From IMG/VR virus record IMGVR_UViG_3300026116_000007: a stretch of DNA of 20,000 nt, one strand, 5' to 3'. This DNA comes from an uncultured virus (IMG/VR IMGVR_UViG_3300026116_000007) (Duplodnaviria > Heunggongvirae > Uroviricota > Caudoviricetes). The position numbers and the translations under genes are program-made. The notes under the pieces are model-generated. The model saw only the letters and a program-made list of their open reading frames with translations. It did no database searches and was not told the origin of the DNA. Each line of letters opens with the position of its first letter. The stretch's first letter is position 1. Shown in pieces: positions 355 through 14,688 of this stretch.

Positions 355-1569
355 ATGGCCACAATACACGTAGTTTTAGCAAAAGTTGTAAATGAAGGAG
401 TTGCGAAGTTATTTTACGCCCATCCTTCAATTCAGAAGACGTCCCTCATTCTGAATAATAAGTCCGTCATCAAGGCCCCCACTGGCTCAATCGTCCAATT
501 GTCCATCAAGATGATGCCTTCCGGGAAACGTATCCTCCTCCACTGTGAAGCTATGAGCTACACGAGCATCCAACAGTTCATCAATTCAGTTGGTATCGAC
601 TCAATGAGAAAAGCAAGTATTCGTTCTGCGTCTGAGGGGTATCCCGTAACAACCGCATTTGACGGTTCGGACGACAAGGCCTACCTCATCAAGGCAGTCA
701 TTGCTCGTTTTGGAGATGATACTGAGCAGGTAAACAATGATGAACCTCAGGTCGAAGAAGAGCCCTCCGATGGTTTCACTCAGTATGGGGAACTTTTCAT
801 TCCCGAGATTATCCTTCGAGCACTTCGAGCAGCAAAGGATATCGCTTCGAAGGCCAAGGCTGCTAACGTCCTCTTGGTTGGTCCTTCTGGGAATGGCAAA
901 ACCTCCCTCGCTCATGAGTTTGCCAGTGAGAATGGTTTCCAGTTCGTCAAGGTAAACTGCTCCGTCGTTCGTGACCCCGAAGAGTGGTTTGGCTATCGTG
1001 AAGCAATCGATGGCTCAACCGTTTTTGTTGAGACTGATTTCACCAAAGCAGTCAAGGCTGGAAACGCAGTCATCCTCCTCGACGAAATCAACCGTTTGGA
1101 GCCCTACCTCCACAACTCGTTGATGCCTCTCCTCGATGAAACTCGTCGAACCTCAATTCATGGGAACAATATCGAGGTTGGGGACAACGTCATCTTTTTC
1201 TGCACCATGAACCTCGGCATTGGTTTTGTTGGAACTTTCCTCCTCGACACTGCAGTCAAAAATCGTATGGATGCCACCATCGTGATGGAAAAGCTTTCCT
1301 TTGACCGTGAAGTTCAACTCCTCATCGAGAGGGTTGGAGTAACAAAGACAGTCGCAAGCCGGATTGTTACTCTCATGGACAAGCTTCGTGATGTAGTCAT
1401 CCGCAACGAAATGGAAGTTGATATCTCTATTCGTTCCTCACTCAAGGTCGCTCGCATGGTCAATACCGAAATCGTGGACATTCGAGAGGCACTCACATTC
1501 GTTATTTTCAATAATGCAGAGGATGTTGAGCAGGCTAAAATGCTCGCCGATGCTTTGATTGGAGCCTAA
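355..1569 (+). CDS. MoxR/CbbQ/NirQ/CobS-type AAA+ ATPase with an N-terminal extension
   Basis: Walker A GPSGNGKT, Walker B ILLDEINR, sensor-1 region FCTMN, arginine-finger region DTAVKNR, sensor-2 ISIRS. RBS GAAAGGA at 340-346. Adjacent VWA gene. Confidence 0.9.
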   Translation: MATIHVVLAKVVNEGVAKLFYAHPSIQKTSLILNNKSVIKAPTGSIVQLSIKMMPSGKRILLHCEAMSYTSIQQFINSVGIDSMRKASIRSASEGYPVTTAFDGSDDKAYLIKAVIARFGDDTEQVNNDEPQVEEEPSDGFTQYGELFIPEIILRALRAAKDIASKAKAANVLLVGPSGNGKTSLAHEFASENGFQFVKVNCSVVRDPEEWFGYREAIDGSTVFVETDFTKAVKAGNAVILLDEINRLEPYLHNSLMPLLDETRRTSIHGNNIEVGDNVIFFCTMNLGIGFVGTFLLDTAVKNRMDATIVMEKLSFDREVQLLIERVGVTKTVASRIVTLMDKLRDVVIRNEMEVDISIRSSLKVARMVNTEIVDIREALTFVIFNNAEDVEQAKMLADALIGA

Positions 1570-1570
1570 C

Positions 1571-3343
1571 ATGGACGCAATTCAAAATGCACGTAAGTTG
1601 ATTGACAAGGAGTACGGGCTGCTGGGAATACCGGCAGTCCGCTCCCCTCGTTTTCTCAGTCTCATTCGTGGGACTAAAAATTTGCTCAGTATGACCACTG
1701 GGAAGTTTGGGACACGAAAGGCAAAATCGTTGGCCATCAGCTACGAAGTTGGTGAAATGGCCTCCACTGATTTGAAGCTCAATGTTCGTATCCCTGCCTG
1801 GTATTGCTACACTGAGTCATTACTAAAGTTTGTTGGTCGTCCTCTCAGTGAGAAGGAGTCCTCAGCAGTTTCATTGACCATTATCAATGGCTCAACCATT
1901 CATGAGGGACTTCACGTAGCACTTAGTCGTGACATCATGACAAAGGGGTACTTCGAGCGTATTCACGCTCACGAAAACTCCCAACTTTTTATGTTCTTAG
2001 TCAACATTGTTGAGGACATTCGAATGGAAGGAATTCTCCGCAGCTCAAGGCACATCGAATTTGCTGAGTACATCGATGCTAAGAACGAAATTTTCTTCTC
2101 TGAGGAAAATATGGTTGAGGAGCTCGACAAGGTTATAAGTGAAACTGAGAATGACCCCAAATCGGTTGCTCTCGCACTGCTTGCCCCTTACAAGTGCACA
2201 TCACGCAGAAAAAGAATTTTGAGTACGTTCGCCGAAGTTTTCCCTGAGGTTGGTACAATCGTGAGCAACATTGATGAGTCAACCAAAACCAATGAAGTAG
2301 CCGAAGAGCTCTTCAAACTTCTCAATGGAGCAAAGTCAACTAAGAGAGAAAGCGGTGATGGCAAACTTGGTACAGGTGGTGAAGCAGCCGAGTCAGAGTT
2401 CAATATGGAAAAAGCTTTAGCAAAGAAAGCAGAGAAGATAATGAGAAGTTTGCTAAAGGGAAATCCAACAGAGAAAATTGATGTTGAAGAGGATGAGAAT
2501 AAGGGTCCACTGAAGGATAAAGAAATGGAAGAGCGTGACATCACAAACATTGCTTTAACCATTTATCCTTGGGACTACGAGGATATCAATCTCGACTTTG
2601 GCTTCCTCAGGAAGTTGAAGGTCGCTCGTCAGCTCCTCCCCAGCCGAAGTGAACCCAAGACAAGAGGTTCAAAACTTCTCAACACTCGCATTAGTCACAT
2701 CATCACTGATGGGAAACTTTTCACCAATCATGGAGATAGCTTTTCATCCATGCAGAGGAAACACCCCGAATTTGTACTCTTACTCGATATGTCCGGGTCA
2801 ATGAGTGAGTATATTGGACGAGTAGCAGCCGCAGTTCGTAAGATTGCGAAGGAAATGAAGAGTGCGGATATCACATTTGCGGTTTATGGTCACACATCAT
2901 ATTATCTTGATGGTAGCAGCCATAAAGAAAGTGACCAACCAGTTCTCTATCACATCTTCTCTTATAAGACGAACAATCGAACTGACCGTGACTTTGATAA
3001 TCGATTTGAGTTAGCTCGTAAAGTTCACTTAGTTGAGAACTATGATGGATATGCAATCCGGAAAATGGCTGGTAAGTTCAACAAGAAATGTGACCATCGC
3101 AAATTGCTCGTCCTCTCTGATGGTTCACCAGCCGGACATGACTACGGTGGGTCAAAAGGAAATCAACACACAATTGAGTCCATTGCTTGGGTTCGCAAGC
3201 AGGGAATTCAAGTCATCGCAATGTCCCTTGTTGAAGACGTAATCTCGGCTAACAACTTCCTCTACGGGAAAGAGAACAACGTGGACGCATCAACGCAGGA
3301 CAAATTGGAGTCTCAACTACAAAAACTTATCCTAGGCGGGTAA
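1571..3343 (+). CDS. VWA (MIDAS) domain protein with an N-terminal HExxH motif (CobT/NorD-like partner of the AAA+ ATPase)
   Basis: HEGLH and NIVEDIRME in the N-terminal part; MIDAS DMSGSMS, ENYDG and LSDGSP in the C-terminal part. ATG at 1571 follows GGAG at 1561-1564 and is preferred over the ORF-track start at 1559. Confidence 0.88.
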   Translation: MDAIQNARKLIDKEYGLLGIPAVRSPRFLSLIRGTKNLLSMTTGKFGTRKAKSLAISYEVGEMASTDLKLNVRIPAWYCYTESLLKFVGRPLSEKESSAVSLTIINGSTIHEGLHVALSRDIMTKGYFERIHAHENSQLFMFLVNIVEDIRMEGILRSSRHIEFAEYIDAKNEIFFSEENMVEELDKVISETENDPKSVALALLAPYKCTSRRKRILSTFAEVFPEVGTIVSNIDESTKTNEVAEELFKLLNGAKSTKRESGDGKLGTGGEAAESEFNMEKALAKKAEKIMRSLLKGNPTEKIDVEEDENKGPLKDKEMEERDITNIALTIYPWDYEDINLDFGFLRKLKVARQLLPSRSEPKTRGSKLLNTRISHIITDGKLFTNHGDSFSSMQRKHPEFVLLLDMSGSMSEYIGRVAAAVRKIAKEMKSADITFAVYGHTSYYLDGSSHKESDQPVLYHIFSYKTNNRTDRDFDNRFELARKVHLVENYDGYAIRKMAGKFNKKCDHRKLLVLSDGSPAGHDYGGSKGNQHTIESIAWVRKQGIQVIAMSLVEDVISANNFLYGKENNVDASTQDKLESQLQKLILGG

Positions 3344-3353
3344 AAATAAGTAG

Positions 3354-3438
3354 GCATCTTCGGATGTGGTGGAGCAGTTGAGGTCTCCTTTTGGGGGTCG
3401 GGACAACCCCCTATTTTCCTTTCCTCAGCTGTTCCATC
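3354..3438 (+). ncRNA. Putative small RNA: cUUCGg hairpin plus a 16-bp stem with a pyrimidine-rich internal loop
   Basis: GCATC-TTCG-GATGT (3354-3367); GGTGGAGCAGTTGAGG (3368-3383) pairs with CCTCAGCTGTTCCATC (3423-3438); apical GGGGGT/ACCCCC stem. Confidence 0.5.
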
Positions 3439-3446
3439 TTAGCTAG

Positions 3447-3499
3447 GTCTCTCCCTCTGAGTCTGACGTTTATGACTGCAGGGGGAGAGACTTTTATTT
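3447..3499 (+). terminator. Probable intrinsic terminator
   Basis: GTCTCTCCCTCTG (3447-3459) pairs with CAGGGGGAGAGAC (3479-3491), followed by TTTTATTT. Confidence 0.6.
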
Positions 3500-3508
3500 G
3501 GAGGTACA

Positions 3509-3655
3509 ATGTTTGAAAAATTATTCGATAAAGTATTCTCATTCGTTGTTACGTCGTGGGTAAGCTATAAGCTAAAGAAATATGGCACACTGAACGTTCA
3601 GTTTCCCGCTTCACTTGGCAAACAGATTGACGTCTTCTTTGAGAAGGAGGAATAA
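3509..3655 (+). CDS. Hypothetical protein, 48 aa (not in the ORF track)
   Basis: RBS GGAGGT then ATG at 3509; MFEKLFDKVFSFVVTSW...FFEKEE; TAATG overlap with the next gene. Confidence 0.7.
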   Translation: MFEKLFDKVFSFVVTSWVSYKLKKYGTLNVQFPASLGKQIDVFFEKEE

Positions 3656-3885
3656 TGAACGGCGTTCGTAAGAAAGATGGAAAGACTGGTCGAGGGTTCG
3701 CCGTAAATGCTTTCGTTCATGGTAAATTATTTGATTGGACTTGCCCCAAATGTAATCTTCGGAATACAAACAACATATGGTTAGGGAGAATGGACTACTG
3801 TTGTGAAGGTTGTACAAAGTTGACCAACGTGAAAGGGCACACCATCGGAATGAACAAGGCAGTTTCACTTATTGAAATACTATAG
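3655..3885 (+). CDS. Small zinc-ribbon-like protein
   Basis: CPKC...CEGC cysteine pairs; RBS AAGGAGG. Confidence 0.7.
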   Translation: MNGVRKKDGKTGRGFAVNAFVHGKLFDWTCPKCNLRNTNNIWLGRMDYCCEGCTKLTNVKGHTIGMNKAVSLIEIL

Positions 3886-3893
3886 GTGGAATA

Positions 3894-3992
3894 ATGAAAT
3901 TCAAAATCTGGTGGTACTTATCAGTGGTGGTTCCAATGAAATGGTTGATGCTACGGTCGCTCAGGTTCATTCGAAACAGGAAAGTAATATAA
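3894..3992 (+). CDS. Possible 32-aa peptide
   Basis: AGGTGG then ATG at 3894; MKFKIWWYLSVVVPMKWLMLRSLRFIRNRKVI; fills the gap between neighbouring genes. Confidence 0.35.
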   Translation: MKFKIWWYLSVVVPMKWLMLRSLRFIRNRKVI

Positions 3993-4038
3993 CTATAAGC
4001 CTCGCTACTATAATGCAGCTGAGTGTAAGGAGAATAAA

Positions 4039-4317
4039 ATGGACGCAAATGAAAGTGATAAGTTAGACGAAATCGCAGACAAGATTTTTGACCTCAATGG
4101 AATGAATAGCTCTAAAGGGAGTTTTGCCCAAATGGGAATTGATGGGGATTATTTATTCATCAAATTTATGTCAGATAATGGGGTAACTGATGGAGAGAAT
4201 GGAAGAATACTCCATACTCTTTTAGAGAAGGCCAACGTCAGACATGAATACTTTGATGATAGAAAGTTCCTGGTCAAGACGAAGGATATCGAGTCATTCC
4301 TGAATGATAATCGGTGA
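4039..4317 (+). CDS. Hypothetical protein
   Basis: 92-aa ORF with RBS AAGGAGA. Confidence 0.75.
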   Translation: MDANESDKLDEIADKIFDLNGMNSSKGSFAQMGIDGDYLFIKFMSDNGVTDGENGRILHTLLEKANVRHEYFDDRKFLVKTKDIESFLNDNR

Positions 4318-4424
4318 CACTGCGGTCGCCTCTGGTAATCGAAAATTTGTAGTATGATAGATTATGTGTCTATACAGAGAGGAGGAACTATGGTGCTCCA
4401 TAAACCTTATCTAAAGGAGGTCAT

Positions 4425-4613
4425 ATGAGGCAATTCTTTATCGCACTATTGGTTGTTGGTATTCTATTTGGCATATGTGGTGGTCTTGTTGGATTTGCGA
4501 GTGTTATTGCTATGATTGACACGTTTATGTCAAAGTTCTTTATCACCCCACTATGGATACGAGTACTGGCATTCTTTGGTTTATTCATAATCATCATGAT
4601 AGGGAGGAAATAA
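4425..4613 (+). CDS. Small membrane protein (about 2 TM segments)
   Basis: RBS AAGGAGGT; two hydrophobic stretches. Confidence 0.75.
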   Translation: MRQFFIALLVVGILFGICGGLVGFASVIAMIDTFMSKFFITPLWIRVLAFFGLFIIIMIGRK

Positions 4614-4619
4614 ACATCT

Positions 4620-4692
4620 GGGGATGTAGCTCAATGGATAGAGCACCAGCCTTCTAAGCTGATTGTTCTGGGTTCGAGTCCCAGCATCCTCA
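4620..4692 (+). tRNA. trnR: tRNA-Arg(UCU)
   Basis: Acceptor GGGGATG/CATCCTC, D arm GCTC/GAGC, anticodon loop CT-TCT-AA, T arm CTGGG-TTCGAGT-CCCAG, discriminator A. CCA is not encoded. Confidence 0.95.
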
Positions 4693-4694
4693 CT

Positions 4695-4795
4695 AAGGAA
4701 GTCAGAAGCGGTTCCCTTGGACACACGAGCGAAGGCGAGCAGGCGTGGACAATCCATGGTCAAGAAAGAAATGAACCACTGACTTCCTTTTTTTT
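4695..4795 (+). ncRNA. Structured element of about 95 nt directly 3' of tRNA-Arg, ending in a U-tract
   Basis: Perfect 11-bp AAGGAAGTCAG/CTGACTTCCTT, inner GGTTC/GAACC, CTTGG/TCAAG and CGTGGA-CAA-TCCATG, followed by a T run. Confidence 0.55.
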
Positions 4796-4832
4796 GCACG
4801 AGACGTAAACAAATTTATCAAAGGAGAACAAA

Positions 4833-5036
4833 ATGAAAAAAGCATTTATTATTCAGGAAACTAAAGACTACGCAATGGGGGTATACCTTGTATTTGCTGA
4901 GAACGTGAAGGAAGCAAAGACTACTCTCTTCAATTATGAAGGGTCACTTCACGGAGGGGTACGCAAGGCTATCATGGAAGTTCAAGCTCAATTCAATGGT
5001 CAATACATCATCGAGTTAGGTTCATATATAGAATAG
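4833..5036 (+). CDS. Hypothetical protein
   Basis: RBS AAAGGAGA; 67 aa. Confidence 0.75.
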   Translation: MKKAFIIQETKDYAMGVYLVFAENVKEAKTTLFNYEGSLHGGVRKAIMEVQAQFNGQYIIELGSYIE

Positions 5037-5044
5037 GAGGTCTC

Positions 5045-5332
5045 ATGACTGTATCACCATGCAACTTCGGAAATCTGAATAAACCCATCAATGAACCACT
5101 TACCGAACTGGAAATCCAGGTGCTAAAGGTGATGGGAATGAAAAAGATGAATGCACCTGACCTTGACGTATGGGATGCTAGTTTGATTTGGCTAATGGCT
5201 GAAGCTCAAATGGGTCACTTCGCACGGTTAGCTACAGCATTCCCTGAGCTTGGCGAAGTCATTGCTTCGTTTATGTTTGGTAATCTTCAGACACGATACG
5301 AGGCTCAAACAAAAGAAGTTTGTGAAGCATAA
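5045..5332 (+). CDS. Hypothetical protein
   Basis: RBS AGGAGGT; 95 aa. Confidence 0.75.
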   Translation: MTVSPCNFGNLNKPINEPLTELEIQVLKVMGMKKMNAPDLDVWDASLIWLMAEAQMGHFARLATAFPELGEVIASFMFGNLQTRYEAQTKEVCEA

Positions 5333-5341
5333 AGGAGAACA

Positions 5342-5533
5342 ATGACCAATCTTCAGCAACTTGCAAATGAAATGAGAAAGAAGATTTATCTTTATCGTCT
5401 GAGCAACATGACGGTCGCGCACTCAGTAACTGCCTACTCTGTTGGAGACAAAGTTGAAAACATAACAGAGGACCAAATAGGAAAACTAACAATTATTGAG
5501 ATTATAGGAGCATATGTTCCGAAGGAGGAATGA
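5342..5533 (+). CDS. Hypothetical protein
   Basis: RBS AAAGGAGA; 63 aa; ATGA overlap with the next gene. Confidence 0.7.
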   Translation: MTNLQQLANEMRKKIYLYRLSNMTVAHSVTAYSVGDKVENITEDQIGKLTIIEIIGAYVPKEE

Positions 5534-5772
5534 TGGCAAAGAAAAGGGGTGGTTACAAGAATTTGACTGGCAATTGGCAGGATACGGTGAACGGGATTGT
5601 CCGCTCTGACAATTTTGTTCCTGGCGAAGGCGCAAAAGGGTATTCTCCCGACTGGGACAATCGTCCGCCTGTTCGTGATAGTGGCGGTCGTCCACTAATT
5701 CCTGGCGGCAATGGCAAAGTTGATTGGGTAAGATGGGCAGCCGAATTAGAAGAACAGAAAAAGAAAGGATAG
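5530..5772 (+). CDS. Hypothetical Gly/Pro-rich protein
   Basis: RBS AAGGAGG; 80 aa; start at 5530 or 5533. Confidence 0.7.
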   Translation: MMAKKRGGYKNLTGNWQDTVNGIVRSDNFVPGEGAKGYSPDWDNRPPVRDSGGRPLIPGGNGKVDWVRWAAELEEQKKKG

Positions 5773-5773
5773 C

Positions 5774-5992
5774 ATGTCAAGAAGAGGTACAAAATATAAC
5801 GACATGGAGCTCTACGACTTTATCAAAAAGTATATAGAGCTCCATAAGTATTCCCCTTCACTGAGGGAAATGGTAAAAGGAACTTCATATACGTCAACGA
5901 GTATTGCAACCTTAGGAGTAAATCGACTCATTAGAAGAGGGTATATCAGTAAAACTCCTCTTATCGCAAGGGGGATAGTAATTATCAAATGA
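5774..5992 (+). CDS. LexA-like N-terminal winged-helix DNA-binding protein lacking the peptidase domain
   Basis: LYDFIKKYIELHKYSPSLREM...STS...LIRRGYI...ARGI follows the LexA DNA-binding-domain pattern (P-S/T-x-R-E-I; L-x-x-K/R-G-Y-I; ARGI). The ORF ends at 72 aa. Confidence 0.8.
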   Translation: MSRRGTKYNDMELYDFIKKYIELHKYSPSLREMVKGTSYTSTSIATLGVNRLIRRGYISKTPLIARGIVIIK

Positions 5993-6002
5993 GGGGGACC
6001 AT

Positions 6003-6149
6003 GGGTTGTTACTCAAGTGGATGAAGAGTGTAGGATGTCTGGTTGAACATTATTAATGAGAGTCTTGGGACTACAGGGATAATGTGACAAGCCTACGATA
6101 ATTTGGGACTAACCATTCCATCACGTGAGTTCGAATCTCACACAGCCCA
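6003..6149 (+). ncRNA. Class-II tRNA-like RNA with a 57-nt structured segment in place of the anticodon loop
   Basis: Acceptor GGGTTGT/ACAGCCC plus A73; U8-A9; D arm CTC-AAGTGGATGAA-GAG; anticodon stem GTAGG (6030-6034)/CCTAC (6092-6096); 28-nt variable region; T arm GTGAG-TTCGAAT-CTCAC. Confidence 0.8.
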
Positions 6150-6174
6150 CTTTTTCATTTTGAAAGGAGAACAT

Positions 6175-6381
6175 ATGGTAAGTATAGAAGTAAGAATAAC
6201 CCCACAATGTGGCCACGAGCAGTTTACTTATGACTGCCTATGGTGTGCGGAGTCAAAGGTAGTTCAAAGAACTATTGTTCAATTCATTGAAGATAAGAAG
6301 GGACCATTCAAGTCACACTCACAAATAGAAATGAAAATCACTGACTATTCAGGATACGAGGGTAATGATGAGACCATCTAA
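6175..6381 (+). CDS. Hypothetical protein with a CxH...CxxC motif
   Basis: ATG at 6175 after AAAGGAGA. The ORF-track start at 6103 lies inside the tRNA-like RNA. Confidence 0.7.
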   Translation: MVSIEVRITPQCGHEQFTYDCLWCAESKVVQRTIVQFIEDKKGPFKSHSQIEMKITDYSGYEGNDETI

Positions 6382-6817
6382 ATATGAAACCTATATGGAA
6401 ATTGCAAAGATGTGGGCCAAACAATCTACATGTTCAGCACGTGTAGCGGTTGGAGCAGTCATCGTCAATAAGTTTGGCCAAGTGATTGCGAGTGGGTACA
6501 ATGGGTCACCCCGAGGTCATCCCCACTGTGATGAAGTTGGTTGTGACCTTGATGCTCTAGGTCACTGCAAGAGAGCTATTCACGCTGAATTGAATGCTAT
6601 ATTACAGTGTGCGAGAGTGGGTGTCTCATGTGACGACTGCTTTATCTATATAACTCATTCACCTTGTCCTCGATGCTCATTGATGATTGCCCAATCAGGG
6701 ATTATAAGAGTCGTCTATGATAATCAATATGGGGATTTGACTGACTCATCCGATATTCTTGCAGTCTCACGTATCCCAATGGTCCCATTTGTAAAGGAGG
6801 TAGGATGGACTTCATAG
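6365..6817 (+). CDS. dCMP deaminase (ComEB/T4 cd family)
   Basis: STC...VGAVIV, SGYNG, HC...GC, HAELNAI and PCPRC zinc motifs. Confidence 0.92.
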   Translation: MMRPSKYETYMEIAKMWAKQSTCSARVAVGAVIVNKFGQVIASGYNGSPRGHPHCDEVGCDLDALGHCKRAIHAELNAILQCARVGVSCDDCFIYITHSPCPRCSLMIAQSGIIRVVYDNQYGDLTDSSDILAVSRIPMVPFVKEVGWTS

Positions 6818-7050
6818 TCGAGGTGCACACCACATGGTGAGAGGAAACAAAATTCCTCATAAAAGGCTGTTCTAGCAGTGATGATGCACGTTCACAATTG
6901 GTAGAGCATTACAAAAATCACCGTCACGTTGACCTTCATCCTTGCATCCCTCCTCCAACGAAACGTGATGTTGGCTTTTATATCTTTGGAGTTGATGAGG
7001 TGAAAGATAAAATCACTGAGGTCCATGACTACTATCCACCGGAGGAATAA
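6805..7050 (+). pseudogene. 81-codon frame interrupted by one in-frame TGA at codon 12 (pseudogene, read-through or sequence error)
   Basis: RBS AAGGAGGT, ATG at 6805, TGA at 6838-6840, then 69 open codons to TAA at 7048-7050, which overlaps the next ATG (TAATG). Confidence 0.6.
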
Positions 7051-7250
7051 TGCAGGAGCGTCGCAAAAACTACAAACAAGTCCTGAAGGATAGCAAAGCA
7101 GCAAAAACCCAAAATGAAAGGAGCAAAGAGCTTTTTGACCAACTTGATGAAATTAGGGGCAAAATAAGAGGATGTGGGATAGACTATGATTTGTATTGCA
7201 AATATAAGCAACAGGAAATGGAAATCATAGCCAGGATAGCTACCTTTTAG
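7050..7250 (+). CDS. Hypothetical helical protein
   Basis: RBS GGAGG; TAATG coupling; 66 aa. Confidence 0.65.
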   Translation: MQERRKNYKQVLKDSKAAKTQNERSKELFDQLDEIRGKIRGCGIDYDLYCKYKQQEMEIIARIATF

Positions 7251-7277
7251 AAGTATTGAAAAATTATGTGCCGATGA

Positions 7278-7514
7278 CACACAGGTACATCCAGAGAGTC
7301 GACTCATTTATAGTTGAGTAACCTATCACCTATCAATGATAATCTACTCTGGGAGCTTCTGTGTGCCACTGTAAGTTTCATACCCGTGCATTCGTTCAAT
7401 AAGGATACCTTATAAAGAGACCGACCCTACTACCATCGTACTAGTCGACAAAACGTGGATGTGGCTAAGGCGACTTGCGGGAGATTTCGGGCGAACCGAA
7501 CTGCACGGACCGCA
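7278..7514 (+). ncRNA. Structured intergenic region: three-way junction (7278-7365) plus a pseudoknotted element (7384-7514)
   Basis: Stems CACACAG/CTGTGTG, CCAGAG/CTCTGG, ACTCA/TGAGT, TATCA/TGATA; then CCGTGCA/TGCACGG, ATAAGG/CCTTAT, AGTCG/CGACT, TGCGG/CCGCA, TTCGG/CCGAA. No ORF covers it. The strand of the second element is ambiguous. Confidence 0.45.
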
Positions 7515-7562
7515 ATCATTGATGGAACTTCCATCTGATAATTTTATGTAAGGAGAAAAATA

Positions 7563-7946
7563 ATGAAAATCATAAAGAAGGAAACTAAGGAAGACATTCG
7601 TGCACGAAAGCAGCGAGAGCGTGAACTGAAGATTGCTGAACGTGAAGAGAAGAAGGCCGAGCGAGAGCAGAAAAAGCAGGCTCGTCTCGAAAAGAAAGAA
7701 CTTCGCGAGGCAAAGCTACGCATTCAAAAACTGCCTGCCAAAAAGATGACCCCCGCTCAGGTCAAGACCGTTTTGACCATCATCGACCCTGATGAAAAGT
7801 TTTCAGCAAAGAAAACCAAATCAGTCAGCGCACGAATCAAACAGATTGGGGACCTAAAGCCTGGAGTTATCTCTAATCGTTTACGAGCTCGTCAAGCTCA
7901 AGTCAATATGATACAGGCAATTTTCACTGTTGTAACTGGAGAGTAA
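7563..7946 (+). CDS. Basic Lys/Arg/Glu-rich coiled-coil protein
   Basis: RBS AAGGAGA; 127 aa; highly charged N-terminal half. Confidence 0.75.
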   Translation: MKIIKKETKEDIRARKQRERELKIAEREEKKAEREQKKQARLEKKELREAKLRIQKLPAKKMTPAQVKTVLTIIDPDEKFSAKKTKSVSARIKQIGDLKPGVISNRLRARQAQVNMIQAIFTVVTGE

Positions 7947-7948
7947 AA

Positions 7949-8176
7949 ATGAATACACCTAATCTAAAGAAAGTCAAGTTGTCAAGTCTCAATGCGAGAA
8001 CACGCGATATTGCCGAATGTTTTGCTCTTGCTTGGGGGACCAAGGTTATAACAAATGAGCAGGAGGTTTACGTTTCAGAAAAGGAAACGAACCTACGCAA
8101 AATTACGGTCATTTACACTGATGACGGTTATCGCATTGATGAAAATACGTCTATGCCCTTCCGCCTTACTCACTAG
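7949..8176 (+). CDS. Hypothetical protein
   Basis: RBS GGAG; 75 aa. Confidence 0.7.
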   Translation: MNTPNLKKVKLSSLNARTRDIAECFALAWGTKVITNEQEVYVSEKETNLRKITVIYTDDGYRIDENTSMPFRLTH

Positions 8177-8190
8177 AAGGAACTAGGTAA

Positions 8191-8373
8191 TCTTTTCAGT
8201 CGTGGTTCGAGAGTAATTGAAAAGAGGGGGATGACAGGGACAAGCCAGTCCATGCGTCTACTACTTGCTGTTCAACCTACGCTAAGAGTCTTGAGGTACG
8301 AAAGGCCCAGTTAATCAAGATGCAATTAGTAGGAGTAGCCAGAACCGACCCTGATGGGACGCTGTGAGATTGG
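8191..8373 (+). ncRNA. Pseudoknot RNA motif, copy 1
   Basis: Leading hairpin 8191-8225; GACAGGGACAAG at 8233; CAGGG/CCCTG (8349-8353) crosses CCAGTC-CAT-GCGTC/GACGC-T-GTG-A-GATTGG; long inserted hairpin 8261-8338. Confidence 0.7.
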
Positions 8374-8389
8374 ACAAGACATTTACCAT

Positions 8390-8591
8390 CTGAGTTTCAC
8401 TTGTAGAAAGAAACTCAGTAGACAGGGACAAGTAGTCCATGTGTTGAACGTTTAGCAGTGTGCTGAGTCTAGCGATATTTGCAGGTGTTGAGAATGAGGA
8501 AACTCATTTGAGCCCAAATAGGAGGTAGTTCGAAGCATAACAAATTGCATTGCTAACAACAAACGACCCTGACGCAACGCTGTGGGACTAT
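8390..8591 (+). ncRNA. Pseudoknot RNA motif, copy 2
   Basis: Leading hairpin 8390-8418; GACAGGGACAAG at 8421; CAGGG/CCCTG crosses TAGTC-CAT-GTGTTG/CAACGC-T-GTG-G-GACTA; insert closed by TTAGCAGTG/CATTGCTAA and containing AATGAG-GAAA-CTCATT. Confidence 0.7.
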
Positions 8592-8607
8592 ACGTTTATC
8601 TTATATA

Positions 8608-8754
8608 TGCAGTTGACCTCTATGAAATCAGATGGAGGCTCTGCAAGAAAGGAGGTTCCTACCGCTCTTCATAAACTATAGGCACGGGCTTGACCCGAAA
8701 GTAGCCACTGATTGGTAATCAGTCCGACCTCGACGTGGGAGGTTGATGTTTATG
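8608..8754 (+). ncRNA. Hairpin plus four-way-junction structured element
   Basis: TGCAG/CTGCA with CCTCTAT/ATGGAGG; then CATAAAC/GTTTATG closing GGC..CGGG/CCCG..GCC, ACTGATT/AATCAGT and CGACCTC/GAGGTTG. Confidence 0.5.
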
Positions 8755-8981
8755 ATAAATGCTAAACTTTTTCCATAGAGTAAATGAGAATAATTATAGA
8801 ATGCACGTTGTAAGACAATGGGTTACCTCTATCCTATATAAGCGACAATTACAAGCTTATATAAAATGAGTGAAATGACAAGTGTCAGAATAAATATCGG
8901 ATGGCAAACACTGTGAAATCATTCGAGCTTGTCAATTTGAATTGAATGAAAATAAAAATACACCAAGGAGTAAAGATTAAG

Positions 8982-9839
8982 ATGGCTAAAACAATTAGTA
9001 AGACTAAGACAAAGTCAATTATCCGCAAAGGTCCAGCCTCTGGCAAAAAGTCAAATGACTTCATCGTAGTGAAAGAGGATGAGCCCGCAACGATTGTTCC
9101 CATTCTGCCCACAGGTGAAATCAATTCGATTGACCTTCACGCCTTTTGGGCCATCAACCCAGCGGTGACCTTCGCTTGCATCAAGGGTAGCGACGATGCG
9201 GGCGATGGCTGCCCTGGCTGCCTGCTGGGAGACAAAGCCGGTTATCGTGCATTCCTGCCGGTCCTCGATGCTGAGGGCGAGCTCAAAGTGTTCCCTTTTG
9301 GAATTTCTGTTGAGCGTCAGTTGGTTACCCTCGAGGATGAACTTGGGACAATCGTTGGAACAAAGCTTCGTGTTAAACGCACTGGGAATGGTTTGGCAAC
9401 CAAGTACCAGGTTATCAACCTCGGCAAAGAGGTCAAGATTGACGTTGATGAAGATGATGCAGCCAAGTTTGTAGAGGCTCACATCGAAATCAAAGACCGC
9501 GACAAAATCGTTGACGAGCTCACCGCAGCTGGCCTTATGGGTAAGAAAAAGAAGAGCAAGCTGGCTGAGGAAGAGGACGAAGACGAGGATAATGACGAGG
9601 AGGAAGAGGACGATGATGACGAGGAAGTAACCCCCGTCAAGAGCAAGAAAGCAAAGGTGGTTGAGGAAGAGGATGATGACGAGGATGATGACGAGGATGA
9701 TGACGAGGATGAGGAAGACGAAACTCCCGTCAAAAAGTCCGTCAAGAAGGTTCCAGCTAAGAAAGTACCAGTCAAGAAAGCTGCTCCAGTAGCTAAAAAG
9801 CCGGTTAAGAAGAGTAAAAAGAGCGATGATTGGGAATAG
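8982..9839 (+). CDS. gp32-like single-stranded DNA-binding protein with a long acidic/basic low-complexity tail
   Basis: H...C...CPGC putative zinc site and RTGNGLATKYQV motif typical of phage SSBs; first gene of the replication operon; ends in DDWE. Start placed at 8982 after AAGGAG (alternative 8946). Confidence 0.75.
   Translation: MAKTISKTKTKSIIRKGPASGKKSNDFIVVKEDEPATIVPILPTGEINSIDLHAFWAINPAVTFACIKGSDDAGDGCPGCLLGDKAGYRAFLPVLDAEGELKVFPFGISVERQLVTLEDELGTIVGTKLRVKRTGNGLATKYQVINLGKEVKIDVDEDDAAKFVEAHIEIKDRDKIVDELTAAGLMGKKKKSKLAEEEDEDEDNDEEEEDDDDEEVTPVKSKKAKVVEEEDDDEDDDEDDDEDEEDETPVKKSVKKVPAKKVPVKKAAPVAKKPVKKSKKSDDWE
9669..9710 (+). repeat. 12-nt tandem repeat (GAGGATGATGAC x3.5) encoding EDDD
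   Basis: Read directly from the sequence within the SSB tail. Confidence 0.85.
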
Positions 9840-10296
9840 TCTCGACGACCTTCTCAAACTTCAAACTGGTCTTATGCGTATTTTGGGAGTTGACCCTCTG
9901 TCGGGAGCAATCTCGGCAGGGGGTAAACCCTCTATGACTGAGCTTGGAGCAGCTATCAGCATAACGTGTGAGTCAGCCGAAATTCTTGAAGCAATGGAGA
10001 AGGCTGGACGAAAATGGAAAGAAAAAGAGGGTAGTATTGAGGCTGAGGTGAAAGAGGAGCTAATAGATGTAGTATTCTTTGTCTTAGAGTTAGCCATCCT
10101 TCTGAACCTCACTGGTGAACAACTGGCTAACCTCTACGTTGAGAAGTACAAAAAGAATTTGCTTCGCTACTTAGAGGCCACAGCTAATAGTGGTGGAGTA
10201 AGCAGTCTGCTTGTCTCAGCAATGGATGAACAATTCGGATATGCTGAGACAGAGAAGATTATCAAAGAAGCACTTGGAATAAAGGAGGTCAAATGA
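9826..10296 (+). CDS. All-alpha NTP pyrophosphohydrolase (dimeric dUTPase/dCTPase, MazG-like fold)
   Basis: ESAE...RKWK...EELIDVVFF...YVEKYKKN matches the ExxE / KxWK / EExxD pattern of dimeric dUTPases and T4 gp56-like enzymes. Confidence 0.75.
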   Translation: MIGNSLDDLLKLQTGLMRILGVDPLSGAISAGGKPSMTELGAAISITCESAEILEAMEKAGRKWKEKEGSIEAEVKEELIDVVFFVLELAILLNLTGEQLANLYVEKYKKNLLRYLEATANSGGVSSLLVSAMDEQFGYAETEKIIKEALGIKEVK

Positions 10297-10916
10297 GTGG
10301 ACTCGCCCCCTACCTTCTTGGTTGTTCAGCCTGCACACAGTGCGAAGGGGCAGCCTACCAGCTGCCTCCATTCCTTTATGCAGGGTCAAGTACTCCAACT
10401 GTTTTGGTTATGGCCCAAAATCCAGGTGAAATAAAAGAGGATTGGCGCTTGGATTTATCAAAGCTTATCGATGAGAAGACCACAGGTGAAACACTCAAGA
10501 CTATCTATGATATAGATTTCATCACCTCTCATGGTCACAAACAGATGACTAAAATCTTTGGAGATACTTGGCTCACAAACGGTAAGTTCATGTATACGAA
10601 TGCAGTTCGGTGTAGGACTAAAGATAATGCTCCTCCATCAAATGAGATGATTGAGAACTGTTTAGCGTGGACTTACCAATTACCAATCCCACAAATTGTT
10701 ATTCTCATGGGAAAGATTGCAGTGAAACAATTCTGCACAATGGTAGGAAAAAGTGAACTCCCTCTTTGGAGGACTGTGAAGCTCACAAGGTCAAAGTCTA
10801 AAGTGACTTATGTTACAACTATGCCGCATTATTCAGCTATGAGGTCACACTCAGATTTTGATGATGCTAAACGTCTCTTTGAGAAAACCCTTGAGGATGC
10901 CGAGGTGGTGTTATGA
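10293..10916 (+). CDS. Uracil-DNA glycosylase superfamily protein, family-4-like (Fe-S)
   Basis: CSACTQC, motif A variant MAQNPG, TNAVRCR, PSNEMIENC, LMGKIA, motif B variant MPHYS. Confidence 0.8.
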   Translation: MSGLAPYLLGCSACTQCEGAAYQLPPFLYAGSSTPTVLVMAQNPGEIKEDWRLDLSKLIDEKTTGETLKTIYDIDFITSHGHKQMTKIFGDTWLTNGKFMYTNAVRCRTKDNAPPSNEMIENCLAWTYQLPIPQIVILMGKIAVKQFCTMVGKSELPLWRTVKLTRSKSKVTYVTTMPHYSAMRSHSDFDDAKRLFEKTLEDAEVVL

Positions 10917-12196
10917 AAGCAAAGAACATCATCCTTGGCGGAGGTTTCGCTGGCCTACAATTAGCCTCGCTGTTGAATGACTCTATTATCATTGAAGCAT
11001 CCCCTTCAGTAGGTGGACTTTTGAAGTCCTTCAAATCAGATAGTGGACAATTCACGTTCGACATTGGCGGCCACGTCTATACAACGAAGGATGAGCTTCT
11101 CAGCGACATCATGCATGACTCAAATCCGAATTACTTCGCTGAGCGAAAAGCATACTATGATTATCAAAGACAAATCCCATATCCAATTCAGTACCATGCT
11201 GATGAGCTTGGAATAAAGCTAATGCACACTCCCAGCGAAAGACCTCCAAGCTTAGCCTCACTACTCATCCACGAATTTGGTCAAGAGTTCTATGAAAAAG
11301 TTTTAGGGCCGTTCAATAGGAGAGTATGGTCAACGAGTCCTAGTCAGATGGACACTGATTGGATTGATGGACGCATCGCAAAGATTAGTGAATTTGGGAA
11401 TAATTGGGGAACAAATTCATCCTTCTATTATGCTTGTGGCGAAGATATCCTTGAAACAATGAAAGCAAGACTTCGACTCACTGGAACTCGTATCTTTACC
11501 GACTCATCAGTCATCGACATAAAGCCTAATGATAAAGAGCTCTATGTCGATTGTGTTTTCCCAGCAGTCTATAAAGGGACAATCACGTATGAGCATCTAT
11601 TCGACACAACTGGGATGCTTCTCAACATGAATGACCAAATCCTTCCACACAATGATGTCCTCACAATTGGAATTGGTCTAAACCGAAAACTCGACGTTGA
11701 CTTCCACTGGTGGTACAATTCAGTTGAGAACACATCCCCAATTCATCGCATTACCCTACTCAGTAGGTATAGCGAAAAACTTGCACCTGATGGAGTGGAC
11801 TCTCTCCTCATCGAAATCCCATACAAGAACTATAACAATAGGGACATCTATGAAAGTGAAAATGATAATGAGTACTTCTCAAGAATTGGGGTACTAAGCC
11901 TGCTTCGTAGAGCAAATTTCAACTTCATAGATGATAGTAGCATAGAAGAGATAGTCAAAATCAGGTCAAAAGGGTATCCAATTCCTGTTATAACACATCG
12001 CACCAAAGTTGCAATTGCAAGGAAAAATTATGCAGAGAATTGTGCCTATTTAGTTGGTAGATGGGGAGCCCATGGGTACTACAACCTCGACCACATCATT
12101 CATGACGCAATTTCAGCAGTGAGTGCTTCACATAATGAAAAAGTTGAGGACTACTATTGGGCAAATCATTACTACAAAGAGAAAAGGAGATTTTAG
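10913..12196 (+). CDS. FAD-dependent UDP-galactopyranose-mutase-like flavoenzyme
   Basis: GGGFAG dinucleotide fold, FDIGGHVY, IPYPIQ, PFNRRVW, WIDGRIA, NWGTNSSFYY, GYPIP and GRWG..YNLDH follow, in order, the motifs I recall from fungal/trypanosomatid-type UGM (DVGGHVIF, PYPFQ, PYNFKVW, WxxERVA, WGPNxxF, GYPxP, GRFG..NQDH). Confidence 0.75.
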   Translation: MKAKNIILGGGFAGLQLASLLNDSIIIEASPSVGGLLKSFKSDSGQFTFDIGGHVYTTKDELLSDIMHDSNPNYFAERKAYYDYQRQIPYPIQYHADELGIKLMHTPSERPPSLASLLIHEFGQEFYEKVLGPFNRRVWSTSPSQMDTDWIDGRIAKISEFGNNWGTNSSFYYACGEDILETMKARLRLTGTRIFTDSSVIDIKPNDKELYVDCVFPAVYKGTITYEHLFDTTGMLLNMNDQILPHNDVLTIGIGLNRKLDVDFHWWYNSVENTSPIHRITLLSRYSEKLAPDGVDSLLIEIPYKNYNNRDIYESENDNEYFSRIGVLSLLRRANFNFIDDSSIEEIVKIRSKGYPIPVITHRTKVAIARKNYAENCAYLVGRWGAHGYYNLDHIIHDAISAVSASHNEKVEDYYWANHYYKEKRRF

Positions 12197-12197
12197 T

Positions 12198-12809
12198 ATG
12201 CTGTACATTTTTGAAGGGCCACGTAATAGCGGCAAAACAACTACTATCAACACGACACTTGCTTTGCTGAAAGAAAGCGGGAGGACGGCCTACACGATAA
12301 AATTCCAAAGGACCGCAAGACCTGCTCCTCCCGTCTTCATGATTGACTTTCTCACCAGGAACTACCTCGCTCTCATTGATAGCAGGTCAATCTGTTTGCT
12401 TGATAGGTTCCACCTCACTGAATTTGTGATGAGGACTCTTGATAAAAAGGTAGATACTCACGTGCTCGTAACAACTACTCATATGATTGATGAAACGCTT
12501 CGGAACATGGGGGCAGTAACTTTCATTCTCGAAGCAACCGCTGAGACTCGTCAGGCTCGTCTGAAACTGAGAGACGTTGACCACAACAAAAAGGAGTGGT
12601 TATCATATGATGAGCTTGACACCACTTGGACGTATGCAAGAAAGATTTTCAACGAGAGCGAAACTCGTATTCGCAAAATTGAAAATCGTGATGATGGCCT
12701 CAAGTTGGCTAGGGAGATTGTCAAGCATGTTGATGGAGGGAAACTTCTCAACGAGAAAATCCCTTTTCTCCCTCCAATCATAATCAGCAATGAGGTAGTT
12801 TTAGCATGA
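12198..12809 (+). CDS. dNMP (thymidylate-like) kinase
   Basis: MLYIFEGPRNSGKTT P-loop, LDRFHLTE, lid region RLKLR. ATG at 12198 after AAAAGGAGA is preferred over 12123. Confidence 0.82.
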   Translation: MLYIFEGPRNSGKTTTINTTLALLKESGRTAYTIKFQRTARPAPPVFMIDFLTRNYLALIDSRSICLLDRFHLTEFVMRTLDKKVDTHVLVTTTHMIDETLRNMGAVTFILEATAETRQARLKLRDVDHNKKEWLSYDELDTTWTYARKIFNESETRIRKIENRDDGLKLAREIVKHVDGGKLLNEKIPFLPPIIISNEVVLA

Positions 12810-13777
12810 GAACAATCCTCTACTCTACATGGGAGCCAGGACTTACCGGTAATACAAAAAGTTCTGGTGGTGGAGCTGCATGGACAAAGTATCTCTGGGG
12901 TTTCCTTGAAACAAATGGGTATAGCATTGTTGCTCCAGGGATAACTAATCCAGACTCAGTCGAACCAACCCAACCTGTTGATGCAGCCATTTTCTGTTGG
13001 AGATGGTTGTTACCAGATGCTCCTCAATATAAGGAGCGGAACCTTTTGTATGATAGACAAAATTATCTGATTGGCTGGTGCTTTGAAAATGCAATACCAG
13101 TCGTCATACATGACCAGGACTTGAAGATGCTTTCCGTTGAGCGTGAGTGGCTGAAGAAAAATGGAGCCATCATCGCTACTCCATCTTTATTTCCTGAGAC
13201 TGGAGAAATCTCTTTACACTTTCCAAATCCATACGAGTTTGAACCACTCATTCAGGGCTCAACTGGTCTAACCTACATTGGGAACAATTATGAAAGACTT
13301 GACCAAACATTCAAGTTGATTGAGCCCTTTGCACATGAAGTCCACACAACCTTCTATGGAAATTGGATTGAGCCAGGTTATGATAGGGACCCAAGTGTGA
13401 TAAAAGGGTTACTACCAAATGTTCATTTTATGGGTAGACTTCCACAGGAGGATGTTATCACCACATTGAGAAAAGCAAAAGCGACGGTGATGCTCCATAA
13501 GCCTGAATATGGACCGCGTGGATTTGTTACCATTAGATGGGCTGAGGCAGCATCTGCAGGTGTCCTCCCGTTTATCCCAGCTGAGTTCAATCTACCAAAT
13601 CAATATATCTATTCATTGAGCAGGCTGCGTGTCTCTGAGAGTGCCGAGATGCTAGAGGCCTATAATCAGATAGGAGAAAACGAACGCAAAAAACTGATAT
13701 ATCAATTACGGCGATTTGTCGTTCACTATATGTCCCCAGTTCCTTGGATAAAACTTTTAGAAAGGATAATCGTATGA
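12806..13777 (+). CDS. GT-B glycosyltransferase resembling T4 DNA beta-glucosyltransferase
   Basis: The C-domain YIGN..FYGN..FMGRLP..KPEY..FVTIRWAE..IPAEF..V.ESAEM parallels T4 BGT as I recall it (YGGS..FFGN..FTGKIP..KNY..FITLRVWE..IDEEF..VNNRAEL). HDQD lies at the expected catalytic-Asp region. Confidence 0.75.
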   Translation: MRTILYSTWEPGLTGNTKSSGGGAAWTKYLWGFLETNGYSIVAPGITNPDSVEPTQPVDAAIFCWRWLLPDAPQYKERNLLYDRQNYLIGWCFENAIPVVIHDQDLKMLSVEREWLKKNGAIIATPSLFPETGEISLHFPNPYEFEPLIQGSTGLTYIGNNYERLDQTFKLIEPFAHEVHTTFYGNWIEPGYDRDPSVIKGLLPNVHFMGRLPQEDVITTLRKAKATVMLHKPEYGPRGFVTIRWAEAASAGVLPFIPAEFNLPNQYIYSLSRLRVSESAEMLEAYNQIGENERKKLIYQLRRFVVHYMSPVPWIKLLERIIV

Positions 13778-14688
13778 CAAACTTTTCACCTAAAGACCTG
13801 TCCTATTTTATTCAGGACATCGAAGAGTGGGGAGCGAAGGTTGACTCAGAGAGAGGTGCCACACGAGAAGTTGAGAATGAAGTTCTCTCTATGAATAATC
13901 CTCTTGACCGCGTATGTACTGAAGAGTGGCGAAAAATGAACATTGGCTTTGCCATCACTGATGCAATTCAGCACATTGTAGGAGATGACTCACTTGCTCC
14001 CCTCACTCAGTTCGTTCCTGGCTTTTCAAAATATTCTACTAATGGTAGGACAATTGATGGAGCTTATGGCAAACGTTTTCATGCTAACGAGCAGCTCGAT
14101 AAAATCATCATGATGCTAAGGAAAGACCCAATGACAAGACGAGCTGTTCTTTCAGTCTATATGGGTCCAGTTGACCTCTGGGGTGGTGGTGGTCTGAATA
14201 CTCCATGCACCCTCAATTTTCATTTTCTTGTTCGTGATGAAAAGCTGAACATGAAGGTGATGATGAGGTCTAATGACGTAATCCTTGGTCTCACAAATGA
14301 CGTATTCACATTCACCATGCTTCATGAGTATATTTCATCTCATGTAGAAATACCAATTGGTGATTACACTCACTTTGCTTCTTCACTTCATCTCTACGAG
14401 AGTGACCTCAGTAAGTATAAACCCATTCATGGAGGTCATTGGAATAAGGTCATGCATGCGATGCCTTTCAAATGGGACCCAAAACCTCTCTATGATGCTC
14501 TCATTCATCTCAATGTTACCTTATTTGAAGATGCATGTTCCAAAACATTTTCAACACACTATGACCAAGACCTTTACTTTGCATCAGCAGTTGTCTTCTA
14601 CAGAAAACAAGACGGAGTCCGTGAGATGTGGCAATCAATTGGTGATGAGACTCTCAAACGAGTAGCTGGCTTCTGGATAGGAGAATGA
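13774..14688 (+). CDS. Thymidylate-synthase-fold dCMP-modifying enzyme (dCMP hydroxymethylase-like)
   Basis: GAYGKR, TRRA, catalytic PC (TPCT), MRSNDVILGLTND and SLHLY. Asp occupies the position of E. coli TS Asn177, as in T4 gp42. ATGA overlap at 13774. Confidence 0.85.
   Translation: MTNFSPKDLSYFIQDIEEWGAKVDSERGATREVENEVLSMNNPLDRVCTEEWRKMNIGFAITDAIQHIVGDDSLAPLTQFVPGFSKYSTNGRTIDGAYGKRFHANEQLDKIIMMLRKDPMTRRAVLSVYMGPVDLWGGGGLNTPCTLNFHFLVRDEKLNMKVMMRSNDVILGLTNDVFTFTMLHEYISSHVEIPIGDYTHFASSLHLYESDLSKYKPIHGGHWNKVMHAMPFKWDPKPLYDALIHLNVTLFEDACSKTFSTHYDQDLYFASAVVFYRKQDGVREMWQSIGDETLKRVAGFWIGE

Follow-up and report, generated by a model that had tools for sequence, protein, structure and literature searches.

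Can a phage tRNA gene that has a complete body and a long folded segment in its middle yield a tRNA, and if it cannot, what would its RNA be? The question is raised by positions 6003 to 6149 of a 20,000-nt stretch of DNA (here called the window), which is part of IMG/VR virus record IMGVR_UViG_3300026116_000007, an uncultured virus of the Caudoviricetes (57,592 bp, 42% G+C, 87% complete). The 147-nt element is shaped like a tRNA gene, with a perfect 7-bp acceptor stem, an A at discriminator position 73, a serine-type D arm, a canonical T arm, and a 67-nt rod-like hairpin. A first-pass annotation made from the sequence had placed a 57-nt structured arm where the anticodon loop should be. We find instead that the rod sits between the D arm and an anticodon-type arm, and that the segment to which it belongs is a degenerate copy of the tRNA that surrounds it. 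The explanation that we tentatively put first is that the element is an unspliced, nondecoding tRNA look-alike; that it is a relic without function is nearly as likely. It probably cannot read codons, whether it is a tRNA mimic or a gene in decay.

The body of the element is that of an ordinary tRNA (Rfam family RF00005). It has the 7-bp acceptor stem, A73 (A6149, as had been noted), U8, the GG of the D loop, and a TTCGAAT T arm, and it has no encoded CCA. All 20 stem pairs of this outer body and its conserved loop bases are kept. An unconstrained minimum free energy (MFE) fold, taken with the sequence, reproduces the intact acceptor, D, and T arms of the first-pass annotation and also returns the helices listed there at the same positions. 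From its base the rod consists of 5 bp (GTAGG/CCTAC, 6030-6034/6092-6096), an A/AG loop, 4 bp (TGTC/GACA, 6036-6039/6086-6089), the 7-nt bulge TGGTTGA, 8 bp (6047-6054/6078-6085), internal loops, and a 4-bp AGTC/GACT hairpin with a TTGG loop at its apex (6061-6072). In the ensemble, pair probabilities are 0.87 to 1.0 for the acceptor stem, 0.94 to 0.95 for the T arm, and 0.39 for the D stem; within the rod they are 0.95 to 1.0 for the 8-bp helix, 0.98 to 1.0 for the apex, 0.51 for the base, and 0.39 to 0.43 for TGTC/GACA. Folded alone, the rod reaches -18.0, equalled by 5 of 200 shuffles (z = -2.25). The element differs from an ordinary tRNA in its length, in the 73 to 74 extra nt between its D and anticodon arms, in its combination of A34 with C37, and in its scores, which are below the thresholds of Rfam and ARAGORN.

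Standard detectors pass the element over. At default settings, with introns either on or off, ARAGORN finds only the phage's tRNA-Arg(TCT), and the same gene is the only one found by Rfam at the gathering threshold; in a search to an E value of 10, the Rfam tRNA model gives the element 16.4 bits (gathering score, 29; E = 0.95). An ARAGORN run with introns allowed had been suggested as a check. At lowered thresholds such runs return only ad hoc solutions with mismatched stems, a tRNA-Pro(tgg) with a 67-nt intron and a tRNA-Ser(gga) with a 76-nt intron, and we rejected both. Forcing introns across all loci gave four calls, every one of them in locus L017 and all of them artefacts.

The element is nevertheless more than a chance look-alike. 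Given its modest thermodynamic excess (see below), the case for this is made by its tRNA-specific features. It has the tRNA core, that is, a 7-bp acceptor stem with discriminator, a T-loop consensus, and a D arm with GG. When both strands of the 57,592-bp genome were scanned for a 5-bp T stem with a T-loop-like heptamer and a 7/7 acceptor stem, there were four matches, and only tRNA-Arg and the element had a TTCGA-type loop. With A or T allowed at 6021, the 18-mer at 6012-6029 matches the D arm of a phage tRNA-Ser(TGA) in locus L068 at every position, which bears out the earlier description of the D arm as Ser/Leu type. In addition, 23 nt of the T arm and acceptor 3' strand are identical to a tRNA-Lys(CTT) from a proteobacterial metagenome-assembled genome (locus L057); this locus came from a pattern scan of GTDB, in which an ordinary tRNA-Lys was the sole match.

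Which arm is which? Three results place the rod between the D and anticodon arms and identify the hairpin at 6104-6120 (arm B) as an anticodon-type arm: the Rfam alignment, the calls obtained after removal of the insert, and the ancestral order that the insert preserves. In the alignment to the Rfam tRNA model, arm B takes the place of the anticodon arm and TCAC that of the variable loop, so the 28-nt variable region of the first-pass annotation (6097-6124) in fact holds an anticodon-type hairpin. Excising 6030-6102 or 6030-6103 in silico leaves a 74- to 75-nt sequence that ARAGORN calls at default as tRNA-Val(AAC), with a score of 109.5. Across four such removals (72 to 74 nt, from 6029/6030 to 6101-6103), each product was called tRNA-Val(AAC), with default scores from 105.7 to 109.5; the phage's own tRNA-Arg scores 117.5. 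Four hand-derived 50-nt excisions within the rod, which would give GUA, GCA, or GUC anticodons, were not called by ARAGORN and were dropped. Arm B has the 5-bp stem, 7-nt loop, and U33 of an anticodon arm; it departs from an ordinary one in being 73 to 74 nt away from position 26 and in having C rather than a purine at position 37. An anticodon arm follows position 26 directly only after the insert is removed in silico. As topology, the earlier drawing remains fair. The rod begins one nucleotide after the D stem, and it may physically fill the slot of the anticodon arm, the old anticodon arm having been displaced into that of the variable arm.

The origin of the insert can be read from its resemblance to its own flanks. 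Two direct repeats link them, TTGGGACTA at 6065 and 6103 and GATAAT at 6078 and 6097. A local alignment of the insert to its joined flanks scores 26 to 27, which was reached by 1 of 2,000 shuffles, and in it 6056-6073 matches the last part of the D arm followed directly by the first part of arm B; with the boundaries of the first-pass annotation the score is 19, reached by 79 of 2,000 shuffles. Semiglobal alignment to the flanking tRNA is collinear over the whole length of the insert and scores 35.75 (shuffle mean, 18.6; standard deviation, 4.3), which was reached by 2 of 3,000 mononucleotide and 6 of 3,000 dinucleotide shuffles. None of 30 other tRNAs from the fetched loci reached that score (maximum, 26.25; mean, 18.0; phage tRNA-Arg, 16.5). 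Because these tests were run after the repeats had been seen, all of their P values are optimistic. The matching segments are 6056-6063, which resembles 6021-6029; 6065-6073, which equals 6103-6111 at 9 of 9 positions; and 6081-6096, which is identical at 13 of 16 positions to 6134-6150, a span that covers the end of the T loop, the 3' strands of the T and acceptor stems, A73, and the next base. The length of the insert, 73 to 74 nt, is about that of the tRNA that holds it (73 nt). Elsewhere in the genome, the only copies of the insert are chance 9- to 11-mers.

By these comparisons the insert is a degenerate, collinear, internally deleted copy of the surrounding tRNA, in which a slipped copy of the acceptor stem forms the rod's base. 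The first-pass annotation had taken the pairing within the insert as an argument against simple decay. That argument is weakened, since the pairing of a segment that copies the tRNA itself is no evidence of selection; it may be a product of the rearrangement. A well-paired insert is thus by itself no proof of selection. The inner copy has many changes and indels, and the outer body is intact. If the copy came from the element's own gene, this points to constraint on the body since the event, because the one diverged while the other kept its pairs.

The self-copy also bears on the element as the first-pass annotation drew it, a literal class II (Ser/Leu-type) tRNA with a 57-nt structure for an anticodon loop and with 6097-6124 as a true variable arm, which could be charged by LeuRS or SerRS and serve as a decoy or amino acid donor. 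Bacterial LeuRS and SerRS largely ignore the anticodon, A73 is present, and the D arm has the 3-bp stem and long Ser-type loop of class II, matching a phage tRNA-Ser exactly. A single nucleotide separates the rod from the D stem, the spacing expected of an anticodon stem, and the MFE fold shows 6097-6122 as a separate arm. However, in the apex of the rod the copied 3' half of the D arm is joined directly to the 5' strand of arm B, and therefore the two were neighbors in the ancestor. Arm B is built like an anticodon arm (5 bp, a 7-nt loop, C32, U33, A38) and is followed by a 4-nt variable loop of class I. A class II anticodon arm and variable arm are not what is found, as 57 nt lie between the stem strands and 7 nt lead from the rod to the hairpin at 6104-6120; the 28-nt variable region would also be longer than that of any class II tRNA known to us. 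ARAGORN calls the form without the insert but did not call any of the four class II excision products that were tried, an outcome to which its limit on variable-arm length may contribute. We consider this explanation unlikely. An apparent likeness of 6038-6047 to a tRNA-Ser anticodon loop was dropped, since a copy of the D loop explains it better.

How widely is the element distributed, and how does it vary? The DNA runs that contain the window are soil and rhizosphere metagenomes, and the element is seen in only one species-level phage cluster, among near-identical strains (1 to 2 substitutions). In the metagenome contig L058 (67.5 kb), the RNA differs at a single base, 6006 T>C, which turns a U.G acceptor pair into C-G. 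The same variant occurs in contigs of three soil runs, and one soil strain additionally has 6021 A>T in the D loop. Four runs were mapped onto the window, of which run X4 yielded no contig; the contigs of the three soil runs have no indels or joints in the element, L058 has no indel, and the rod, as far as it is covered, is free of substitutions. The contigs of run X6 break off at 6019 and 6078 and pick up again at 6126, which hints at unseen strain variation in 6079-6125 (rod 3' strand, linker, or arm B).

Searches for homologues gave little else. A JGI metagenome scan with the upstream protein found seven loci, with the RNA only in L058. IMG/VR yielded no homologue, either by way of three flanking proteins or by patterns (D loop and T arm separated by a long gap; arm B with the T loop; 3' end). 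Against GenBank phages, a 1,201-nt blastn query had no match and the 147-nt query had T-arm matches only. Comparison by DNA did not find the element in records G001 and G002 (G001 is a fragment that starts downstream), and the 98%-identical relative L002 is a fragment that begins downstream of the element's region. A covariance model of the element (R1) was searched against 70 sources (963,035 bases) with E up to 10 and gave 13 matches: 2 to the element itself, 8 to ordinary tRNAs, 2 weak ones inside a polymerase gene, and 1 of 12.8 bits at L003:3878-3973. No insert-free allele or homologue turned up in the three soil runs, in L058, or in pattern scans with the D arm, arm B plus T loop, or 3' end.

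The nearest relative that has the region, L003 (polymerase 73% identical), is without the DNA corresponding to window 3343-8946. In the same intermodule gap it has a 97-nt tRNA-like element (L003:3878-3974) whose acceptor stem pairs at 6 of 7 positions and whose D stem is the same CUC/GAG; its T arm is identical at 16 of 17 positions, and its middle is AT-rich, noncanonical, and without an anticodon arm. If the two RNAs are orthologous, four acceptor pairs have changed on both sides and are still paired. L058 has an extra 85-nt tRNA-like gene after its tRNA-Arg (L058:907-991) that is absent from the window, where it would be inserted at 4789-4804. Its acceptor stem is GGGGCCG/CGGCTCC with G3.U70 and A73, its T arm is ACGAG/TTCGAGT/CTCGT, and its middle is a 7-bp palindromic stem, CCTCATG/CATGAGG; neither ARAGORN nor Rfam calls it. 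With these 97- and 85-nt genes, the phage group repeatedly keeps tRNA "top halves" with odd bottoms. Self-similarity of the kind seen in our element is absent from both (492 and 1,949 of 2,000 shuffles, respectively, reach their scores).

The distribution and the self-copy together give weight to a neutral explanation: a tRNA gene broken by duplication or insertion of its own sequence, with the hairpin as a by-product and the whole without function, either recent or tolerated. As a copy of the tRNA, the insert can be paired without selection. The element is confined to one species-level cluster, the searches of IMG/VR, JGI metagenomes, and GenBank phages having given only the strain copy L058, and its region is absent from the nearest relative and variable between strains. 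An AAC anticodon with C37 is odd, and the detectors reject the gene. On the other side, the outer body is flawless and the inner copy heavily diverged, whereas decay after duplication should strike both; the one variant in the acceptor stem, 6006 T>C, leaves it paired; and tRNA-like genes with odd middles recur in L003 and L058. We regard a relic as a serious possibility, somewhat behind a look-alike that is kept. If it is a relic, the element is a clean snapshot of tRNA gene turnover in a hypervariable region of a phage.

That exact removal of the insert yields an ARAGORN-valid tRNA raises another explanation, a small intron of unknown kind whose excision and the ligation of the halves would produce a working tRNA-Val(AAC). 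For example, the base of the rod, which resembles the acceptor stem, might draw tRNA-end-processing enzymes. GTT is the commonest valine codon in the window genes (133 of 334), which is weak support. Short, unexplained inserts in phage tRNAs are also in print: the nearest published case, as far as the available part of the source goes, is the "enigmatic" tRNA introns of Lak megaphages (Devoto et al. 2019, PMC6784885), for which, as here, there is no known bacterial splicing route. According to the same part of that source, the Lak inserts were placed by the eukaryotic mode of tRNAscan, which makes them introns of the anticodon loop; different cohorts share them, and there are alleles that lack the intron (PMC6784885). 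The insert of our element, in contrast, is at 26/27, is a copy of its own tRNA, belongs to a single lineage, and has no insert-free allele that we could find; instead of conservation across distinct phages, it was found only in this phage (G000) and near-identical strains.

The known routes for removing such an insert do not fit. The first-pass annotation had excluded a group I intron and a canonical bulge-helix-bulge, and we agree on both: there is no Rfam intron match even to E = 10 for an insert of only 57 to 74 nt, and inspection of the folds found no pair of 3-nt bulges flanking a 4-bp helix at the junctions. At the 5' junction an uninterrupted helix begins, and the sole bulge is 7 nt long and on the 5' strand. 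Noncanonical bulge-helix-bulge introns of archaea also occur outside 37/38, including near the D/anticodon junction. They differ from our case, since no bulge-helix-bulge can be drawn at 6029/6030 and 6102/6103 and the host is predicted to be bacterial. This prediction is made because the GenBank relatives of the 947-aa polymerase (~30% identity) are annotated as DnaE-like in phages of bacteria. No ribozyme family matched. Neither RNA ligase (PF09414) nor RtcB (PF01139) was found in the 87%-complete phage genome, which argues against phage-driven splicing; a search with the PF09511 ligase was uninformative, as its control was silent. In addition, the 3' boundary lies 6 to 7 nt past the rod, where no known tRNA 3' enzyme cuts, the insert-free allele was not seen in the soil-run contigs or L058, and A34 and C37 are unusual. 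An intron is therefore the least likely of the explanations considered here. Two by-eye ideas, a hammerhead core and integron attC core sites, had no match.

The bulge of the rod suggests a further possibility. UGGUUGA (6040-6046) can form six consecutive pairs with the loop of arm B, CUAACCA (6109-6115), with GUU facing AAC. The duplex is worth -5.4 kcal/mol, and 227 of 20,000 random 7-mer pairs do as well; this frequency is optimistic, since the pairing was noticed after looking and there were about 15 loop pairs to choose from. Modeled in this way, a clamp between bulge and loop is only suggestive. By eye, the bulge resembles the D loop, TGG(A/T)TGAA. Taken at full strength, the pairing would make the element a self-nested, self-masked valine-type tRNA in which the bulge shows the cognate GUU to its own AAC anticodon; we think this improbable. 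Such a tRNA would be aminoacylatable, or at least CCA tagged, with its anticodon loop hidden in cis. It could escape anticodon nucleases and the ribosome yet occupy tRNA-binding defense or processing proteins, or alternatively be switched on by a cut that frees the rod. If real, the clamp would add a new means of silencing or protecting a tRNA. Neither a cis codon-anticodon clamp nor a tRNA gene nested in itself was found in our literature search, for the portions of the sources that it covered.

We return to the explanation that we put first, an unspliced look-alike that does not decode. The element would be a phage tRNA-derived gene, complete in its body and interrupted between the D and anticodon arms by a 73- to 74-nt segment, a degenerate self-copy refolded into the 67-nt rod and a short linker. 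It would share a transcript with the neighboring genes on the plus strand. Because its "top half" of acceptor, T, and D arms is intact, the RNA would be freed by RNase P and the enzymes that process 3' ends, and CCA would be added afterwards. The five-armed RNA would then persist unspliced and be unusable on the ribosome, because the rod exits at the D/anticodon hinge and the GUU bulge can pair with the anticodon-type loop. Once freed, it might act as a decoy or mimic for tRNA-binding proteins; a nondecoding tRNA mimic, one of the proposals of the first-pass annotation, stays the best functional guess. Alternatively, the structure may do no more than set where the flanking messages are cut apart. 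Phage tRNAs are used against host defenses that cut tRNA (PrrC, PARIS, and retron-linked nucleases).

Several points weigh against this explanation, besides the optimistic P values of the self-similarity and clamp tests. The fold of the whole RNA (-42.7 kcal/mol; z = -1.84) is only modestly better than chance, 10 of 200 shuffles being equally good. Arm B has an ensemble probability of only 0.03 to 0.04, and a fold constrained to contain it reaches -40.9 versus -42.7; its loop, with A34 and C37, is unusual for a working tRNA. The D arm, of class II tRNA-Ser type, fits the earlier drawing better than it fits a class I ancestor, and the bulge may be simply a copy of the D loop. No covariation was found, as the RNA is known only from near-identical strains. 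Conservation of the element in L058 says little, since L058 differs from the window at only four sites across 5837-7989. The insert shows no significant similarity to the middle of the L003 element (432 and 620 of 3,000 shuffles reach the scores). Finally, none of the 24 runs listed as containing the window is an RNA run.

Among known phage RNAs, T4 species 1 RNA (rnaC, 139 nt, NC_000866) offers a partial parallel. It is annotated as a "small, stable RNA" and adjoins a tRNA-Arg. Like our element it is a phage RNA of ~140 nt beside tRNA-Arg, with a canonical T arm near its 3' end and long middle hairpins; it differs in that its ends do not form a clean 7-bp acceptor stem and its MFE fold has no D arm. 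With E up to 10, R1 matched T4 tRNA-Leu and tRNA-Gly and not rnaC (L070:1909-2047). To our knowledge, rnaC has no assigned function. A large survey of structured viral RNAs mentions tRNA-like candidates only generally, in the part of it available to us (PMC10690425).

As a phage tRNA look-alike or an interrupted phage tRNA, the element is unusual in its self-nesting and possible clamp. Its insert is at the D/anticodon hinge, so inserts can sit at a place that intron-aware tRNA finders do not search. It also shows that an insert can be built from the tRNA's own sequence, which is one route to five-armed mimics or to tRNA "introns."

Coordinates of the element's parts and of the features beside it (window numbering)
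Feature	Position	Strand	Basis or remark
Acceptor 5' strand, GGGTTGT	6003..6009	+	7/7 pairs with 6142-6148, one U.G; probability 0.87-1.0
U8, A9, D arm CTC / AAGTGGATGAA / GAG, position 26 = T6029	6010..6029	+	MFE fold; D stem-loop 6012-6028
Rod (arm A), 67 nt	6030..6096	+	MFE fold; z = -2.25
Bulge TGGTTGA, includes GTT (codon complementary to AAC)	6040..6046	+	6 pairs with loop 6109-6115
Linker GATAATT	6097..6103	+	GATAAT repeats 6078-6083; with arm A, the 73- to 74-nt insert
Arm B, anticodon-type hairpin TGGGA / CTAACCA / TTCCA	6104..6120	+	AAC = 6111-6113; position 37 = C
Variable loop TCAC, 4 nt	6121..6124	+	Rfam tRNA model alignment
T arm GTGAG / TTCGAAT / CTCAC	6125..6141	+	Probability 0.94-0.95
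Acceptor 3' strand ACAGCCC and discriminator A; CCA not encoded	6142..6149	+	Sequence
tRNA-Arg(TCT), the phage's only ordinary tRNA	4620..4693	+	ARAGORN; Rfam, 70.1 bits; no encoded CCA
Winged-helix repressor-like protein, 72 aa	5774..5992	+	PHROG phrog_3502, phrog_24920, phrog_362 (transcriptional repressor); E = 2.6e-9 to 8e-6
ORF, 68 aa, Shine-Dalgarno GAAAGGAG, begins 25 nt past the RNA	6175..6381	+	No PHROG match, unknown family

The genes neighboring the RNA are all on the plus strand, and the stop codon of the repressor-like gene is 10 nt upstream of it; the small ORF downstream is preceded by a good ribosome-binding site. We found no convincing promoter or terminator beside the RNA; one promoter-like match lies inside it, and counts of such matches are at shuffle level. 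A seven-codon mini open reading frame (ORF; MGCYSSG) at 6001-6024 starts 2 nt before the first base of the RNA and reads through the 5' side of the acceptor stem and the D arm. Ahead of it, overlapping the upstream gene's stop codon, is GAGGGGGA, at a spacing that is short for a Shine-Dalgarno-like motif. The mini-ORF is probably a coincidence.

Directly after tRNA-Arg is a second structured element of ~95 nt (window 4694-4795), with an 11-bp closing stem followed by eight T (MFE, -33.2; z = -2.6; 1 of 200 shuffles equal). It is conserved in L058 and may be either a small RNA or a terminator whose large loop is decorated. Between the window and L058, the 80-aa ORF at 5530-5772 is different at 98 of 243 alignment positions (40%, gaps included), compared with 0 to 4% for the flanking genes, and looks like a swapped cassette in a hypervariable region. 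The genes of the window are phage-like. At 355-3343, 6365-6817, 9826-15218, and 18683-19693, they include a CobS/CobT-like ATPase pair and a nucleotide metabolism block that comprises a dCMP deaminase, an NTP pyrophosphohydrolase, a thymidylate kinase-like nucleotide kinase, and a thymidylate synthase-like enzyme, with a radical SAM protein downstream. Together, these genes may point to a modified DNA base in the phage.

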